From Patescibacteria group bacterium (lineage in GTDB: Bacteria > Patescibacteriota > Minisyncoccia > Phycocordibacterales > SBAW01): a DNA stretch of 64,000 nucleotides. This document shows positions 8,075 through 55,379 of this stretch, piece by piece. Positions within the stretch are counted from its first letter, which is position 1. Each line of letters begins with the position of its first letter. The DNA is taken from positions 6,120 to 70,119 of the forward strand of contig JAIEMM010000006.1 of the NCBI GenBank assembly GCA_019752125.1, written 5' to 3'. The translations under genes and the position numbers were made by a program. The notes beneath the pieces are model-generated. The model did not search any database and was not told the origin of the DNA. It worked only from the letters and a program-made list of their open reading frames with translations.

Positions 8075-9973
8075 ATGTCTGTTCACGAAGGCCTAAACGA
8101 AGCTCAAAAGACGGCCGTTACCTCAATTGAAGGACCAGTACTTGTAATCGCAGGAGCTGGGGCAGGGAAAACCCGCGTTATCGCTCACCGAATTCTAGAA
8201 ATCGTACGCAAAGGCACCCCTCCGGAGCAAATTTTAGCTATCACGTTCACCAACAAAGCTGCCTCAGAGATGCGTGAGCGCGTTTTAGGTCTTGTCGGAG
8301 ACGCTGGGGTACCCTTCGTTTCAACTTTTCACTCTCTCGGTCTTCAGATAATCAAAGAAAATGCGAAGCTGCTTGGGTATAAGCGTACGCCTGTTATTTA
8401 TGACAGGGCCGACTCTCTACGCGAGGTAAAAGCAGCGCTCAAACAGATCGGCACTGAAGAAATCGAGCCTCGCTCAGCGTTGGGTACGATTTCCAAACAA
8501 AAAGGGCAGGGGGTTGTCGCCGACGCGTTTGCTGAAAGTGCGGCGACGTCGCGCGACCGGCTTATCGCACAGGTGTGGGTTATATACGAACAGGCACTCA
8601 AAAAAGATGGGGCGGTAGATTTTGATGATCTTTTGCTTCGCTCGATGCGACTACTCCGCGACAACGAGGAAGTTCGAAAACATTACCAACAGCGTTGGAC
8701 CCATATACATATAGACGAATACCAAGACACAAACTCGGTACAGGCCACGATGGCAGAAATGTTAGTAGGGCCGCAAAAAAATATTTGTGCGGTGGGAGAC
8801 ATCGACCAAACTATTTACGGTTGGCGCGGGGCTGAGATCGCAAACATGCTTATGTTTGAAAAAAAGTTTCCTGGTGCAAAAATAATTTTGCTTGAAGAAA
8901 ACTATCGTTCGACCAAAACAATTCTTGCAGCAGCAAACGAGGTTATTGCAAAAAATGTCTATAGGCGCGAAAAAAATCTCTATACAAAAAATATTGATGG
9001 GGAACCTCTTGGCATCTACCAGGCCTTTGATGAAACAGACGAGGCGGGTTTTATTGCGCGAAAAATAAAAGAGGGGGTGAGAGAGGGTAGAAAGCCCAAG
9101 GATTTTTGTGTGCTCTACCGCGCCAACTTCCAGTCACGCGCTATTGAAGAGCAGTTGCTCGCTGCTGATATTCCATACCAAGTGCTGGGCACACGATTCT
9201 TCGAACGTAAAGAGGTTAAAGATGTTTTGTCGTTTATAAAAACTGCGCTGTTTGAAACACCCGCAGACCTCGCTCGTATTGCAAACGTTCCACCGCGAGG
9301 CATAGGGAAGGTAACCCTGCTCAAACTTCTCAGTGGTAAAGAACAGGAACTTACAGGTGCAGTGCGTGAAAAAATTCACTCACTCCATCTACTTATACAA
9401 AAAATAAAAATGGGGGCAGAGGAATTAAAACCATCTGAGCTCGTGCGCTTCGTCATAACAGAGTCTGGGCTTGAGCGAATGATGAAAGAGGACAAACTTG
9501 AAGGGCCGGAACGGCTTGAAAACTTGCGCGAATTAGTTTCACTTGCGGCCAGATATGATCTGGCCGCCCCGAGCAACGTCGAGGGGCTGCATCTATTCTT
9601 AGAAAACGCAGCGCTTCAAAGTGACCAGGATGAACTTAAACAAGATTCAAATGCAGTGCGTTTAATGACTGTCCATGCTTCGAAAGGCCTTGAATTTCCT
9701 TATGTATTTATCACCGGCCTCGAAGAGGGTTTGTTCCCATACGAACGCATGGGTGGAGATGGTGAAGACCGAGATGACGAAGAAGAGCGTCGCTTAATGT
9801 ACGTTGCCATAACTCGCGCAGAAACAAAGGTGTTTCTTACGTTTGCTTCCTACCGCACCGTCTTTGGTTCAAAAAATTCAACCATCCCTTCAAAATTCCT
9901 CTCTGACATTTCAGACAGCCTCGTCTCCTGGGAAGCGCCTGAACGTATTGGCAGAACTATATATTTGGATTAG
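8075..9973 (+). CDS. uvrD: UvrD/PcrA/Rep-family ATP-dependent DNA helicase (compact, 632 aa)
   Basis: Helicase motifs Q/I (LNEAQKTAV…AGAGAGKTRVIAHR), Ia (AITFTNKAASEMRER), II (HIDEYQDTN) and a C-terminal VTRAETKVFL. Confidence 0.9.
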   Translation: MSVHEGLNEAQKTAVTSIEGPVLVIAGAGAGKTRVIAHRILEIVRKGTPPEQILAITFTNKAASEMRERVLGLVGDAGVPFVSTFHSLGLQIIKENAKLLGYKRTPVIYDRADSLREVKAALKQIGTEEIEPRSALGTISKQKGQGVVADAFAESAATSRDRLIAQVWVIYEQALKKDGAVDFDDLLLRSMRLLRDNEEVRKHYQQRWTHIHIDEYQDTNSVQATMAEMLVGPQKNICAVGDIDQTIYGWRGAEIANMLMFEKKFPGAKIILLEENYRSTKTILAAANEVIAKNVYRREKNLYTKNIDGEPLGIYQAFDETDEAGFIARKIKEGVREGRKPKDFCVLYRANFQSRAIEEQLLAADIPYQVLGTRFFERKEVKDVLSFIKTALFETPADLARIANVPPRGIGKVTLLKLLSGKEQELTGAVREKIHSLHLLIQKIKMGAEELKPSELVRFVITESGLERMMKEDKLEGPERLENLRELVSLAARYDLAAPSNVEGLHLFLENAALQSDQDELKQDSNAVRLMTVHASKGLEFPYVFITGLEEGLFPYERMGGDGEDRDDEEERRLMYVAITRAETKVFLTFASYRTVFGSKNSTIPSKFLSDISDSLVSWEAPERIGRTIYLD

Positions 9974-9988
9974 TGTGCATACAACGCT

Positions 9989-10765
9989 ATGTATAAGAAG
10001 AAATCTCTCGGACAGAATTTTTTGAAAAGCCCGGCATATTTGCAGGCTATTGTTGATGCCGCGGGCGTGCAGAAAGGGGACTTGGTGCTTGAGATCGGGC
10101 CAGGGGAGGGCGCTCTTACAAAAGAACTTCTTGAGCGTGGAGCAACGGTGGTTGCGGTTGAAAAAGACCACAGGCTTATTCCTATGCTCCACGTAACATT
10201 TGATACACAAATTTACAGCAAACAACTTCAAGTAATAGAAGGGGATGCTCTAGAACTTAACGCGCACGAATTACTTGGAAAGAAAGAATTTAAACTCGTC
10301 GCAAATATTCCGTACTACATTACGGGAGCACTGCTTAAAAAATTCCTTTCAGAGGAAACTGTCCAGCCAAGCACTCTTGTATTTTTAGTTCAAAAAGAAG
10401 TTGCGGAACGAATCTCTAAAAGTAAAAAGGAGAGTATTTTATCTCTTTCAGTAAAAGTATACGGGGACGTGGTGTATGTAAAAACTGTTCCACGCGGTGC
10501 ATTCAGCCCAGCTCCTGAAGTTGATTCTGCAATTTTGCTCGTTAAAAATGTTTCAAAAAAGAATTTTCAAAACGAAAAAGAAGAGCAGCGTTTTTTTACA
10601 CTTGTACGTGCAGGATTTTCACAAAAACGAAAGAAGTTGAAAAACAATCTTGCGGGGGTGCTTGGTTCAGAAACTGCTGCGCGCATGGAAGCGGCGGGAA
10701 TTCCGCAAGACGCACGTGCTGAAGATGTTGCCTTAGAGCAGTGGCTTACGCTCACTAAGGTCTAG
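9989..10765 (+). CDS. rsmA: 16S rRNA (adenine1518/1519-N6)-dimethyltransferase
   Basis: KsgA signature (LGQNFL…LEIGPGEGALT…NIPYYIT). Confidence 0.9.
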   Translation: MYKKKSLGQNFLKSPAYLQAIVDAAGVQKGDLVLEIGPGEGALTKELLERGATVVAVEKDHRLIPMLHVTFDTQIYSKQLQVIEGDALELNAHELLGKKEFKLVANIPYYITGALLKKFLSEETVQPSTLVFLVQKEVAERISKSKKESILSLSVKVYGDVVYVKTVPRGAFSPAPEVDSAILLVKNVSKKNFQNEKEEQRFFTLVRAGFSQKRKKLKNNLAGVLGSETAARMEAAGIPQDARAEDVALEQWLTLTKV

Positions 10766-48304: not shown

Positions 48305-48389
48305 GGAGGAGTGGCAGAGTGGTCTATCGCACTTGTCTTGAAAACAAGAGTACCGCAAGGTACCGTGAGTTCGAATCTCACCTCCTCCG
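48305..48389 (+). tRNA. tRNA-Ser (anticodon TGA), long variable arm
   Basis: ggaggag acceptor, D-loop with GG, anticodon loop cTTGAAa, variable arm ~16 nt, T-arm gtgag-ttcgaat-ctcac, discriminator G. Confidence 0.85.
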
Positions 48390-48403
48390 CATCTGCAAAA
48401 CGA

Positions 48404-48427
48404 GTCGCCCACCAGGGCGGCTTTTTT
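48404..48427 (+). terminator. rho-independent terminator after tRNA-Ser (gtcgccc-acca-gggcggc + TTTTTT)
   Basis: 7-bp stem with a tetraloop, followed by six T. Confidence 0.6.
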
Positions 48428-48557
48428 GCTGACTGGGTTAGAGTGAGATTCGAACAGGGAAGGGGTCGGGAAACGGGAGTTTCCCGTGGCGGAATTATTC
48501 AAACCGAGGGGTTTGAAAGCGCAGGCTTTAGCCGAGCAGTGAGGTTCTCACCTCCTC

Positions 48558-48586
48558 CGCAAAAGTCTTCAGATCTGATAGTGTTG
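48558..48586 (+). repeat. degenerate direct repeat of tRNA-Ser 3' end (cagtgaggttctcacctcctccgca)
   Basis: Matches tRNA-Ser positions 48364-48389 (cgtgagttcgaatctcacctcctccgca) apart from a 5-nt deletion in the T-loop. A second weaker T-arm-like piece (gagtgagattcgaac) lies at 48437-48451. Confidence 0.45.
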
Positions 48587-48596
48587 TAAATATACT

Positions 48597-50099
48597 ATGA
48601 GTGAAGACCTAAAAGAACTCGAGCAGAAACTTTGGCAGTCGGCGGACAAGCTACGCAACAACATGAGTCCGAGTGAGTACAAGTTCGTTGTACTTGGACT
48701 TATTTTCCTTAAGTATATTTCTGATGCCTTCGACGAACGCTACGCAAAAGCCGAGGCAGAAAACTACGACCCTGAAGATAAGGACTGGTATTTAGCAGAG
48801 AATGTTTTTTGGGTGCCAAAGGAGGCTCGTTGGAAAACACTCCAAGACAAAGCCAAGCAGGCTGACATCGGCGTCGTGGTTGATGACGCGATGGATTCTA
48901 TAGAGCGTGAAAATCCGATACTTAAAGGGGTGCTTCCGAAAGACTTTGCGAAAGAAGCACTGGATAAGCGTCGCCTCGGTGAACTTATCGATATCTTCAG
49001 TTCGCTCTCAATGCACGACGGTAAACACAGTGGAAAGGACCTGCTCGGCCAAGTGTATGAATATTTCATTGGCATGTTTGCCGATGCAGAAGGGCAACGG
49101 GGCGGTGAGTTTTATACACCACAAAGTATCGTCAAACTTCTTGTTGAAATGCTTGAGCCATATAAGGGTCGTATTTATGACCCATGCTGTGGATCAGGCG
49201 GCATGTTTGTGCAGAGTGAGAAATTCGTCGAGGCACATAAAGGCCGCATCGGCGACATTGCGGTATATGGCCAAGAGTCCAATCAGACGACTTGGAAGCT
49301 CGCCAAAATGAACATGGCTATTCGCGGTATCGACGCTAAGATTGAGTTTGGTGACACTCTCCACAACGACAAACACAAAGACCTTAAAGCCGACTTCGTT
49401 ATAGCAAACCCTCCCTTCAACGTCTCTGACTGGGGTGGAGAACTGCTACAAGACGACGTTCGATGGAAGTTTGGTATTCCACCAAAAGGCAATGCAAACT
49501 TTGCTTGGATGCAACACTTTATCTACCACCTCTCACCTAAAGGTACTGCCGGTTTCGTACTTGCGAACGGAGCCATGTCGAGCCAGTCGAGCGGCGAGGG
49601 AGATATCCGCAAAGCAATAGTCAGAGCGGGTCTTGTCGACTGTATCATTTCGCTTCCAGGGCAACTTTTCTTTAACACAGGCATACCAGCGACTCTGTGG
49701 TTTATCTCTCGTGATCGTGCCAACCGTGGCGACAAAACGTTATTTATCGACGCACGCGAGATGGGCGAGATGATCAGTCGCCGCAACAAACAACTCACTG
49801 GTGCAGAAATCACGCGTATTACAGAAAAATACAGACAGTTTAAAAAACAAGACAATAGTTATGAGGATGTTGCCGGATTTGCAAAAGTAGCCTCTCTTGA
49901 GGAGATAGAGAAGAACGACTTCGTGCTGACCCCGGGTCGGTATGTCGGCGTTGCCGAGGTCGAAGAAGACGATGAAGTTTTTGAGGAAAAAATGCAGCGT
50001 CTCACCAAAGAGCTCGGCGAGCAGTTTGTTGAGAGCGCGAAGCTGGAGAAAGATATTAGAGCCAATTTAAAAAAGATTGGGTATGAGATAGCAGATTAG
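48597..50099 (+). CDS. hsdM: type I restriction–modification system methyltransferase subunit
   Basis: N6-adenine MTase motifs (…[15 protein letters not shown]…[12 protein letters not shown]…NPPFN). Confidence 0.9.
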
Positions 50100-50100
50100 T

Positions 50101-51264
50101 TTGCCCATGAGTGTTGATAAAAAGACGAAAACAGTTAGATTGGGAGATATTGCCGAGGTAATCCCTGGGTACGCTTTTAAGAGTACAGATTTTGTCGAAA
50201 CTAAAGGAGTTCCAGTAATTAAGATAAAAAACATTACCAATGATTACCGGGTTTCAATAGACGATGTAATTTACATTCCAGAATCCTTGCTTACCAAAAA
50301 ACTTGAAAAGTTTATTGTGATTAAAGATGATTTTTTGGTTGCAATGACTGGCGCTACAGCGGGAAAGATGGGAAGGGTATTTCCTAAGACCAAAGCTGTG
50401 TTAAACCAGCGTGTTGCTAAAATTCAACCAAAAAATATCGATAAGGAGTATCTATGGTCTTTGTTGGCGCGTGAAGATTTTACTCAAAAACTATACAAGT
50501 TAGCCGATGGCGCGGCTCAACCAAATATGAGTGGTTCTCAGATAGAGAACGTGCTGCTTGAAATTTTACCACCAGAAACTCAAGCTAAGATTGGAGCAAT
50601 TCTTTCTTCCCTAAATCAAAAAATCGAGCTCAATCGGAAAATGAACAAAACCCTGGAGGAAATGGGTCAGGCGCTTTTTAAGCATTACTTTATAGACAAT
50701 CCAGATGCGAAAGGATGGGAAAAGAAATCGATTAAAGAGTTCGCGACAATTCAATATGGATATGCTTTTAAATCAAATTTATTTAATGAAAACGCAGAAG
50801 GGCAAAAGATAATACGAATCAGAAATATAAGGGATGGAGATTCAGGGTCTTATACGACTGAGCAAGCTGACTCGAGTTACTTAGTCAAAAATGGAGACGT
50901 ACTTGTTGGAATGGACGGAGACTTTCATATCAATTATTGGGGAGGTGGAGATGCATATCTAGTGCAACGCGTAGCACGATTCAGGGCAAAAGAAAGCTAC
51001 TCAAATGTTTTTGTAAAAAACATTCTAATGGATCCAATTGCTATTTTTGATAAGCGTGAGGCAAGAACCACTGTTGCACACTTGAGTGCGAAAGAGATAA
51101 ATGAGATATCTTTACCTTTTGACGTGGGTGTATACGATAATTTGTCCGGTAGCTTCGAGTATATCTTTAAGAACCATTTTCTTTTGAATAGAGAAATACG
51201 TATTTTAACGAATATGCGAGATTCGCTTCTTCCGCGTTTAATGTCTGGAAAAATTCAGGTATGA
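50101..51264 (+). CDS. hsdS: type I restriction–modification system specificity subunit
   Basis: Two target-recognition-domain halves separated by the conserved central repeat (…LPPETQAKIGAILSSLNQKIELNRKMNKTLEEMGQALFK…), with the motif repeated at the C-terminus (…LLPRLMSGKI). Confidence 0.85.
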   Translation: MPMSVDKKTKTVRLGDIAEVIPGYAFKSTDFVETKGVPVIKIKNITNDYRVSIDDVIYIPESLLTKKLEKFIVIKDDFLVAMTGATAGKMGRVFPKTKAVLNQRVAKIQPKNIDKEYLWSLLAREDFTQKLYKLADGAAQPNMSGSQIENVLLEILPPETQAKIGAILSSLNQKIELNRKMNKTLEEMGQALFKHYFIDNPDAKGWEKKSIKEFATIQYGYAFKSNLFNENAEGQKIIRIRNIRDGDSGSYTTEQADSSYLVKNGDVLVGMDGDFHINYWGGGDAYLVQRVARFRAKESYSNVFVKNILMDPIAIFDKREARTTVAHLSAKEINEISLPFDVGVYDNLSGSFEYIFKNHFLLNREIRILTNMRDSLLPRLMSGKIQV

Positions 51265-52277
51265 GAAATAACATTAAAGTTATTTTTGATACAAATTTGT
51301 TACGATCTGAACCCGAGCGAGCAGTCTTCTTCGGCTTCCGCTCAGATCTAGAGAAGTTTGCGGCAATTGCTGAAATAGTTGTTCCCGACATGGTTATCGA
51401 TGAGATAAAATGTCAGAAGCGAGAACATTTTACTAGTAAAAGAGACGCGTTTGCTAGTAACCCATTTCACGATATTTTTTCACTTGATAAATCGAGTACA
51501 AAATTTTTTGACGTGCATACACATGTTAATGGTATATATGCTCAGGAACCAATTTCTCATTCTGTTATATATCTAACAAAGCCTGATGCGCTCGAAAGAA
51601 TTAAAGAGCTTTGCAATAAACGCTTACCACCATTCGAAAGCGGAGGGGATAAGGGTTTTAAAGATGCTTATATTTATTTGACTGTTCTTGAATATTTGGA
51701 AGGAATTACGGATGAACAAGTATTTTTTGTTTCAGGCGATGGGAAGCTCAAGGAAGCTATTAAACAGCTTAAGGGCATCATAATTGTTTCTAATTTTGAA
51801 GAGTTTGAAGAATTTAATATCTCAGTATTTAAAGAGGAATATTTCATAAATAAATTAAAAGAAGAAATTTCTGACCAGATCACTCCCGAAAGTATAGTCG
51901 ATGTTTCTTCAAATATAGATGGGAATTGGATACTTAAGATTGACGGTGTGGAATATGTTGATCGAATACTCGTTGATTTTAAATCTAGAGAAATTCTGGA
52001 CCCTCGAGGTGATTTTGATCCATTTCTGAATCGACTAATTAATGCCGGAAGTTTTCAAACAGTTCACGAGATGATTGGAGAATTAACCCATTATAGAGGT
52101 TTTTTCTCAGATAAAGAGGTTTTGAAGTTATTAAGTTCAGCGATAACTAATGATCAGATCTATCAAATTGCCCAAGATGAAGATGTTCGTGCATTTTTTC
52201 TAGATCTGTATAGTATCAAGAAACAACTCTTGAACACCGAAGAACAAGAAGAATTTGAAGCTTATTTTCTAAAGTAA
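51261..52277 (+). CDS. PIN-like domain protein embedded between hsdS and hsdR (AT-rich)
   Basis: N-terminal (KVIFDTNLL) is the hallmark first strand and Asp of PIN nucleases. Further acidic positions follow (MVIDEIK, GGDKGFKDAYIY, FFVSGDGK). About 35% GC against about 50% in hsdR. The start ATG overlaps the hsdS stop (ATGA), and hsdR starts 4 nt after its stop. Confidence 0.5.
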   Translation: MRNNIKVIFDTNLLRSEPERAVFFGFRSDLEKFAAIAEIVVPDMVIDEIKCQKREHFTSKRDAFASNPFHDIFSLDKSSTKFFDVHTHVNGIYAQEPISHSVIYLTKPDALERIKELCNKRLPPFESGGDKGFKDAYIYLTVLEYLEGITDEQVFFVSGDGKLKEAIKQLKGIIIVSNFEEFEEFNISVFKEEYFINKLKEEISDQITPESIVDVSSNIDGNWILKIDGVEYVDRILVDFKSREILDPRGDFDPFLNRLINAGSFQTVHEMIGELTHYRGFFSDKEVLKLLSSAITNDQIYQIAQDEDVRAFFLDLYSIKKQLLNTEEQEEFEAYFLK

Positions 52278-52280
52278 CAT

Positions 52281-55379
<3,099 letters not shown>

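Follow-up and report, generated by a model that had tools for sequence, protein, structure and literature searches.

Why does a nuclease gene lie inside a type I restriction-modification (RM) operon, between the specificity gene and the restriction gene? The question is raised by a 64,000-nt stretch of the Patescibacteria group bacterium contig JAIEMM010000006.1 (GCA_019752125.1), hereafter the window, to which all positions refer unless a locus label precedes them. In it, a gene that we call X separates hsdS from hsdR. Our reading, to which we assign a probability of about 0.55, is that X encodes a latent, second-line anti-phage PIN endonuclease that works alongside the restriction enzyme, its gene being the invariable fourth member of the operons of a single type I RM family.

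An embedded gene with an intact PIN active site

The operon has the order hsdM–hsdS–X–hsdR, with all genes on the + strand in both the open reading frame (ORF) list and the sequence. The methyltransferase gene hsdM (48597..50099, 500 aa; Pfam HsdM_N and N6_Mtase, E 1.6e-113; PADLOC MTase_I) is followed by the specificity gene hsdS (50101..51264, 387 aa, TTG start; two stretches of Pfam Methylase_S; PADLOC Specificity_I), by X (51261..52277, 338 aa; Pfam PIN_12), and by the gene for the restriction and translocase subunit, hsdR (52281..55379, 1032 aa; Pfam HSDR_N, SWI2_SNF2, T1R_D3-like, and T1RH-like_C, E 5e-119; PADLOC REase_I). What defines a type I RM system is all encoded here: an HsdM with N6_Mtase, an HsdS with two target-recognition domains, and an HsdR that combines the HSDR_N nuclease with a superfamily 2 motor. 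This HsdR is of the HindI-like family with T1RH-like_C, and the HsdR of EcoR124I is only distantly related to it. The ATG of X (51261-51263) and the TGA of hsdS (51262-51264) share a 4-nt ATGA overlap, while the TAA of X ends at 52277 and hsdR begins with the ATG at 52281, after the 3-nt spacer 'cat'. The gene order and the tight junctions on both sides of X had been described in an initial annotation made from the sequence, and they are borne out by the overlap, the spacer, and the Pfam and PADLOC assignments of the flanking genes. Counts of internal promoters and terminators around X were not above shuffled expectation.

The product of X matches Pfam PIN_12 (PF16289, formerly DUF4935) with 53.7 bits against a gathering cut-off of 32 (E 4.4e-14), and the match takes in residues 7-162 and model positions 1-170 of 172. 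In the protein database it has 183 homologues at E<=1e-3, nearly all of them 333-360 aa long and alignable end to end, and an identical protein has been deposited at NCBI under the name 'PIN domain-containing protein [Patescibacteria group bacterium]'. The gene is real and well conserved. Its predicted catalytic residues are D10 in the motif KVIFDTN (codon 51288-51290), E48 in VIDEIK (51402-51404), D135 in DKGFKD (51663-51665), and D160 in SGDGK (51738-51740), all on the + strand. These four residues are invariant across X and 60 homologues in an alignment spanning 36-62% identity, as are P124-F125, G132-F133-K134, N297, and I300. The acidic tetrad is invariant, too, in 47 genomic copies, including those of a Saccharibacteria sub-clade at 26-27% identity and C-terminally short variants. 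This conservation shows that the predicted PIN active site is intact and under strong purifying selection, and the protein is apparently an active PIN_12 nuclease.

The PIN domain (residues 1-190; 51261..51830, + strand) is supported by Pfam, by an AlphaFold2 (AF2) model, and by Foldseek. The model, built with the homologue alignment as input, has a predicted local distance difference test score (pLDDT) of 91.5 and consists of a PIN α/β/α domain (1-190), a four-stranded β-sheet (about 212-249), and a five-helix bundle (253-336). The acidic residues follow strands 5-9, 38-42, 100-103, and 153-157, and a long helical insert (helices 43-94) comes after the second strand (38-42). In the PDB, Foldseek returns the VapC/PIN structures 3zvk, 1y82, 1w8i, and 4chg at probabilities of 0.9-0.97 (0.95-0.97 for 3zvk, 1y82, and 4chg) with weak E-values (0.04-0.1); it finds no match there for the C-terminal part of the full model, and the family profile finds none among PDB sequences at E<=10. 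The initial annotation had predicted a PIN nuclease from four motifs, followed by a domain of about 150 aa without a known function, and had named Pfam and AlphaFold as checks. All four motifs are present, each with one invariant acidic residue, and the prediction is upheld by a PIN_12 match above threshold, the PIN topology of a VapC-like model, the Foldseek matches, and the invariant tetrad; the region of about 150 aa has no known relative by PDB sequence or fold search.

The PIN fold and the four acidic residues are shared with VapC, whose structures 3zvk, 4chg, and 1y82 are the best structural matches. Unlike VapC, X carries the long insert of helices behind strand 2 and is extended by about 150 residues at its C-terminus, and it is found in an RM operon rather than in a two-gene toxin-antitoxin system of the VapBC type. 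No small VapB-type antitoxin partner was found in the window or in related loci, the neighbours of X being hsdS (4-nt overlap) and hsdR (3 nt). In all features compared, X fits the description of DUF4935 by Matelska et al. in 2017, namely a protein of about 350 aa with an N-terminal PIN domain of the VapC group that contains a long helical insert, followed by a C-terminal α/β region without known structure or function (PMC5499597).

The sole significant viral structural match to X is BFVD A0A8S5M7Q9, a 366-aa 'PIN like domain' protein of Siphoviridae sp. ctPAi1, which Foldseek aligns to the X model over 260 columns (E 1e-5, probability 1.0). A phage or prophage may, on this modelled likeness, encode a protein of X-like size and build.

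A fixed place behind hsdS across phyla

Five homologues (38-42% identity) on long metagenome or genome contigs were looked up for context, and all five lie in the order hsdM..hsdS-X..hsdR with the HsdR domain architecture seen in the window. When a single genome of each GTDB species was scanned, 80 loci were obtained, of which 44 carry the X clade (L010-L053); these were analysed by tblastn and at the ORF level, and every informative locus among these species-representative genomes has the same order. The start of X lies -35 to +24 nt from the stop of hsdS, or of an hsdM-hsdS fusion, in 41 of the 46 evaluable loci. A same-strand hsdR, 47-63% identical to that of the window, follows X in all 47 loci with enough flank, and the hsdM of X-bearing loci is 53-69% identical to its counterpart in the window. 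The hosts belong to Patescibacteria, Saccharibacteria, Bacteroidota, Gammaproteobacteria, Campylobacterota, Desulfobacterota, Nitrospinota, Actinomycetota, and Bdellovibrionota, with one Nanoarchaeia bin in addition. Among the loci examined, no X-clade gene was seen apart from a type I operon, and tblastn against plasmid and phage collections recovered no X homologue. The initial annotation had raised the question of whether the gene recurs at this position. It does so in every informative locus of about 50, which shows that its embedding between hsdS and hsdR is near-obligate and position-fixed. The outcomes that had been named as speaking against the nuclease reading (no PIN fold, loss of the acidic residues, housekeeping contexts) were not encountered.

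The spacing on the other side of X is more variable. Its stop codon lies within 26 nt of hsdR in 24 of 47 loci, and genes amounting to 1-4.4 kb are inserted in the remaining 23/47. The inserted cargo comprises GmrSD, RhuM, DUF3800, OLD-like ATPase-TOPRIM, AlbA_2/Schlafen-like, and HTH-M78 peptidase genes, placed at either the X–hsdR or the hsdM–hsdS junction, and these two junctions are hotspots for defence cargo. The hsdS–X junction is interrupted in 5 of 46 loci, with inserted genes in L024 and L030 only; the further loci in which the two genes are not adjacent are the fragmented L018 and L034, and L050, which has a 141-nt gap. X is shown by this pattern to be a stable member of the hsdM-hsdS unit, with cargo inserting around the unit and not within it.

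The cargo itself shows some regularities. GmrSD is found in at least 8 loci, and DUF3800 comes with a 163-aa partner. Examples of cargo are L003:9026-12138, L006:9123-10136, L007:3776-5446, and L008:5019-6431, among others; several further inserted ORFs lie elsewhere, e.g., at L024/L030 8452-9988 and L047 11002-14134.

The location of X precisely where the hsdMS unit meets hsdR, a point at which cargo is inserted too, could be read as a sign that its task concerns the operon itself. X would then be an addiction toxin that stabilises the operon, with the methyltransferase as its antidote, or an RNase whose trimming of the polycistronic hsd mRNA postpones or restricts HsdR expression once the operon has entered a new host. 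Links between PIN toxins and RM systems have been discussed before (PMC5499597, section 17), and X lacks an antitoxin gene. We nevertheless consider such a role unlikely. No target site or structured RNA was found in the operon, the arrangement persists despite several kilobases of cargo between X and hsdR, and the role would be impossible for PIN_12 relatives outside RM operons. The ORF list, an Rfam scan, and a repeat scan of the operon revealed neither an ORF resembling an antitoxin nor an RNA family or a repeat array; the Rfam scan found only tRNA and there were no meaningful tandem repeats, and the candidate of an RNA antitoxin or other structured RNA in the operon was rejected on these grounds.

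Distant PIN_12 proteins, mostly from Firmicutes and similar to X in the N-terminal part only, are also often found in operons with the same HsdM family. A distant clade within L054-L089, with a different C-terminal region, usually lies directly after hsdM, in the order hsdM-PIN-hsdS-hsdR (L056:9989-11026, L061:9968-11065, L062, L064, L072:9923-11035, L073, and L081). Other distant PIN_12 loci of the same set have no detected RM neighbour.

A different arrangement is seen in Gottfriedia endophytica (NZ_JAGIYQ010000001.1), in which the gene for a 506-aa PIN_12 protein directly follows hsdR (L055:9989-11509). This protein has a long acidic E/V-rich linker and ends in about 70 aa that are homologous to the extreme C-terminus of HsdR (hhalign probability 86%, E 5e-6, against residues 956-1023 of window-type HsdR), and both proteins match PADLOC PDC-S15. 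From this similarity, the nuclease may have borrowed the HsdR tail module.

Composition and co-inheritance

The low GC (guanine plus cytosine) content of X relative to hsdR had been taken in the initial annotation as a sign of independent acquisition. The difference itself stands, at 34.2% for X against 49.6% for hsdR, but hsdS had been left out of the comparison: at 37.6% it is also low, and the AT-rich stretch spans hsdS and X rather than X alone (hsdM 47.4%, window mean 47.8%). In every locus examined, GC content is lowest in X, intermediate in hsdS, and highest in hsdM and hsdR, whatever the GC content of the host, and the low GC of X is a property of the family. Over 32 operons, distances between X proteins correlate with those between HsdR (r=0.84) and HsdM (r=0.85) proteins (Mantel p<=0.0005). 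Over the same operons the mean identity is 43% for X, 63% for HsdR, and 68% for HsdM, and X evolves faster. Given this co-divergence with HsdM and HsdR, X has long belonged to operons of this type and has been inherited with them. The recent independent acquisition proposed from the low GC content was rejected, as X is lowest in GC in every locus and co-diverges with hsdM and hsdR.

Co-inheritance with hsdR would also be expected if the PIN domain served the restriction reaction as an auxiliary DNA nuclease, acting on the flaps, single-stranded DNA, or R-loops that arise from translocation or cleavage by HsdR, and the PIN-like superfamily does include DNA flap nucleases (PMC5499597). X groups, however, with the VapC-like and not the FEN-like PIN domains (PMC5499597), HsdR has a nuclease domain of its own, and related type I operons work without X, as in the Gottfriedia arrangement. 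We regard this explanation as very improbable.

A C-terminal module that accompanies PIN_12

Behind the PIN domain, the AF2 models predict two sub-domains on the + strand: a four-stranded β-sheet at about residues 205-250 (51873..52010) and a helical bundle at residues 253-338 (52017..52274), which contains the invariant N297-x-Q-I300 motif. Modelled alone, the C-terminal region reaches a pLDDT of 94.5. This model has no significant structural neighbour in the PDB, just a faint TPR/Fis1/PPR-like resemblance. A profile of residues 196-338, searched exhaustively with HMMER against 1.84 billion cluster representatives, recovered 1028 proteins at E<=1e-3, many of which match in the helical part only. 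Outside the X clade it is this helical part alone (about residues 250-338 of X) that matches, at variable distance from the N-terminus of proteins of 316-481 aa. Because all ten of the distant matches scanned (10/10) carry an N-terminal PIN_12 domain, the helical bundle is, as far as these profiles indicate, a constant companion of PIN_12 nucleases.

The β domain is found in most of the RM-embedded clade, including short variants of 248-263 aa (L044:9983-10744, L045:5991-6740, L046:9992-10738, L048:9989-10774, and L052:9989-10780). These variants keep the PIN domain and the β-sheet, lack the helical bundle, and still lie directly after hsdS. No β domain was detected in the Saccharibacteria sub-clade (L049-L051, L053) or in 42 of 82 full-length matches to the C-terminal profile.

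Known systems with comparable behaviour

Judged by its domains, X belongs to the PIN_12/DUF4935 family and not to PrrC/RloC, VapBC, or PDC-S34. Its likeness to PrrC, the nuclease of the type IC system EcoprrI, is one of genomic behaviour only, with no homology in sequence or domains. Like PrrC and RloC, it is a latent-RNase candidate located between hsdS and hsdR and almost never found outside type I operons, and like PrrC it has no antitoxin gene of its own. PrrC, in contrast, combines an ABC-ATPase-like regulatory domain (AAA_13) with an anticodon-nuclease domain, in place of the PIN domain and β/helical module of X, and no Pfam, NCBIfam, or PADLOC match to PrrC/RloC domains was found in X. 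The host systems also differ, X being associated with a HindI-like HsdR with T1RH-like_C and PrrC with type IC. PrrC has been described as 'almost exclusively' embedded in type I RM loci (bioRxiv 10.1101/2024.01.29.577857) and is activated when the Stp protein of phage T4 inhibits EcoprrI (PMC12707154). Activation by anti-restriction proteins is thus demonstrated for PrrC and would apply to X by analogy only.

This precedent suggests a possible, if tentative, mechanism in which X is held inactive by the M2S1 or R2M2S1 complex until a phage anti-restriction protein frees the RNase and abortive infection ensues. X is placed in its operon as prrC is in the ecoprrI locus (PMC12707154), and its embedding is near-obligate and co-inherited as is that of PrrC, unlike ordinary cargo (bioRxiv 10.1101/2024.01.29.577857). 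The translational coupling of X to hsdS favours co-assembly, X comes without an antitoxin of its own, and the HsdR-like C-terminal module of the Gottfriedia protein hints that PIN_12 proteins can share parts of the type I machinery. Against such restraint stand the absence of PrrC/RloC domains from X, the lack of homology between its domains and those of Hsd subunits, and the existence of stand-alone relatives, with the PIN_12 protein Cosus functioning without an RM partner (bioRxiv 10.1101/2024.07.02.601719).

Cosus (Brc24) is an integron cassette encoding a PIN12-domain protein that confers complete resistance to phage T7, and this resistance is reduced >10^5-fold by T12A, D14A, or D96A (bioRxiv 10.1101/2024.07.02.601719). 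Like X, it is assigned to Pfam PIN_12 (according to its paper), and its defence needs the predicted PIN residues. Unlike X, it is a stand-alone cassette and is not embedded in an RM operon; the comparison is by description only. Because stand-alone relatives exist and Cosus works alone, X may sense infection by itself. X would then be an autonomous defence gene that detects infection through its own C-terminal module and sits in the operon for co-expression or co-transfer only, an account that we consider open to doubt but worth keeping in view. The helical domain always travels with PIN_12, stand-alone proteins included, Cosus protects as a single cassette, and HsdR is dispensable for other embedded genes, TgvAB for example (PMC11411939). 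On the other hand, the autonomous cargo of these operons is not always present and does not keep to one position, whereas X holds its place behind hsdS and diverges in step with hsdM and hsdR; X-clade members turned up only in type I operons among the loci examined, and none on plasmids or phages.

The only PADLOC match of X is a partial one to PDC-S34 (PDLC05001, PADLOC-DB v2.0.0), a candidate phage defence family that resembles X in its C-terminal helical domain. Residues 255-322 align to just 67 positions near its C-terminal end, 306-372 of 384 (E 3e-8, 31 bits), short of a full-length match, and the matches of ten other PIN_12 proteins are likewise limited to the last 70-150 of the 384 positions. 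PDC-S34 appears from this to be at best a sister family of X. It is presumably one of the guilt-by-embedding candidates of Payne et al. (2024), though the accessible parts of that paper do not confirm this, and those of its supplementary tables contain no 'S34', DUF4935, or PF16289 entry. The initial annotation had suggested a survey of whether homologues recur between hsdS and hsdR or in other defence islands, with PADLOC among the tools; the embedding in type I operons was recovered, and PADLOC gave the partial PDC-S34 match alone. Neither the X clade nor the more distant PIN_12 clades examined have a PADLOC model that covers them.

Many defence systems come from genes embedded in loci of the type I RM, BREX, and DISARM kinds, and those embedded in type I RM show an enrichment for defence (Payne 2024, bioRxiv 10.1101/2024.01.29.577857). 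That defence genes, PIN nucleases among them, occur within or close to type I RM operons has been noted before (PMC5499597, section 17; Payne et al. 2024). For DUF4935, no type I RM link was made by Matelska et al., whereas the X clade is embedded in every locus examined, and none is reported in the searchable literature that mentions DUF4935. The strict hsdS-PIN_12 coupling appears to be undescribed.

A proposed latent second line of defence

In the role that we propose, X would be a metal-dependent, VapC-like PIN endonuclease, most likely an RNase, with a β-sheet and helical module of its own. It is translated from the hsdM-hsdS message by way of the start/stop overlap with hsdS, is inherited together with hsdM and hsdR, and would remain silent in healthy cells. 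When an infection evades or disables restriction, X would cut RNA, translation would stop, and phage growth would stop with it. The RNase activity is probable by analogy, given the VapC-like affinity of the domain; RNA as the substrate, latency, a part in defence, and physical contact with M2S1 or R2M2S1, if any, are all inferred. X is a good candidate for a back-up anti-phage nuclease.

Within this proposal, the fixed position, obligate embedding, and co-inheritance favour PrrC-like restraint and release, whereas the stand-alone relatives and Cosus favour sensing of infection by the C-terminal module of X itself. A more specific and rather speculative form of the former is that X is a non-homologous analogue of PrrC that contacts the type I complex through its β/helical module and is unleashed by a DNA-mimic or other anti-restriction protein.

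Several observations weigh against a defence role tied to the restriction enzyme. As judged from the family comparison, no candidate docking or sensor module is universal, with helices missing from the short variants and no detectable β domain in Saccharibacteria. Profiles of the PIN, β, helical, and whole C-terminal regions of X gave hhalign probabilities of <1% against HsdR, HsdM, and HsdS, and homology to Hsd subunits as a clue to docking was rejected on these values. DUF4935 genes were found by Matelska et al. to be mostly monocistronic (PMC5499597). Relatives that combine PIN_12 with the helical domain can be stand-alone, as is P0234, which adjoins a reverse-transcriptase gene; the coupling to RM is therefore not intrinsic to the fold. 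Finally, a preference for RNA over DNA cannot be read from the sequence.

To our knowledge, PrrC is essentially the only well-studied nuclease in a type I operon that guards the restriction enzyme itself. X represents a second, unrelated nuclease family with PrrC-like genomic behaviour: fixed in position, confined to RM operons in the loci examined, and co-inherited across phyla. This behaviour is unusually PrrC-like and, by analogy, makes X a readily testable prospect as another restriction 'guardian', unrelated to the first; whether cells generally guard their restriction enzymes could be tested with this family concretely and at low cost. If X is indeed a PrrC analogue, hsdM-hsdS-PIN_12-hsdR would be a widespread four-component 'restriction plus guardian' system, present in Patescibacteria, Bacteroidota, Campylobacterota, Gammaproteobacteria, and others. 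If it is only an autonomous defence gene, the result would be more modest, another PIN_12 defence protein beside Cosus. With the X family, defence-annotation tools would gain genes for which they have no model, and the finding corrects the earlier view of DUF4935 genes as mostly monocistronic and without known context.

Flanking sequence and unusual loci

A tRNA-Ser(tga) gene (48305-48390) lies just upstream of the operon in the window. Its final 16 nt (48376-48391) are exactly repeated 170 nt downstream (48546-48561), just before hsdM, and an inverted T-arm-like fragment (48424-48455) lies between the two copies. No matching copy of the 16-nt repeat was found downstream of hsdR, and no island boundary is claimed; the repeats may have been left behind when elements integrated at the tRNA long ago.

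Three further arrangements were seen among the related loci. In L018 (Peribacteria) and L034, the hsdM, X, and hsdR genes are all split into many short ORFs under translation table 11, a pattern more consistent with an alternative genetic code, in which a stop codon is read as sense, than with decay. In another locus, about 7.3 kb of inserted DNA divides an X homologue in two (L058:1810-2556 and 9893-10687), with hsdS directly upstream and hsdR far downstream. On a 556-kb contig that carries the homologue P0040, hsdR is followed immediately by a gene for a protein of >1850 aa with a Pfam Csx12 match (L001:12249-17017), and this operon adjoins, on the strength of that match, a predicted CRISPR-associated effector gene.

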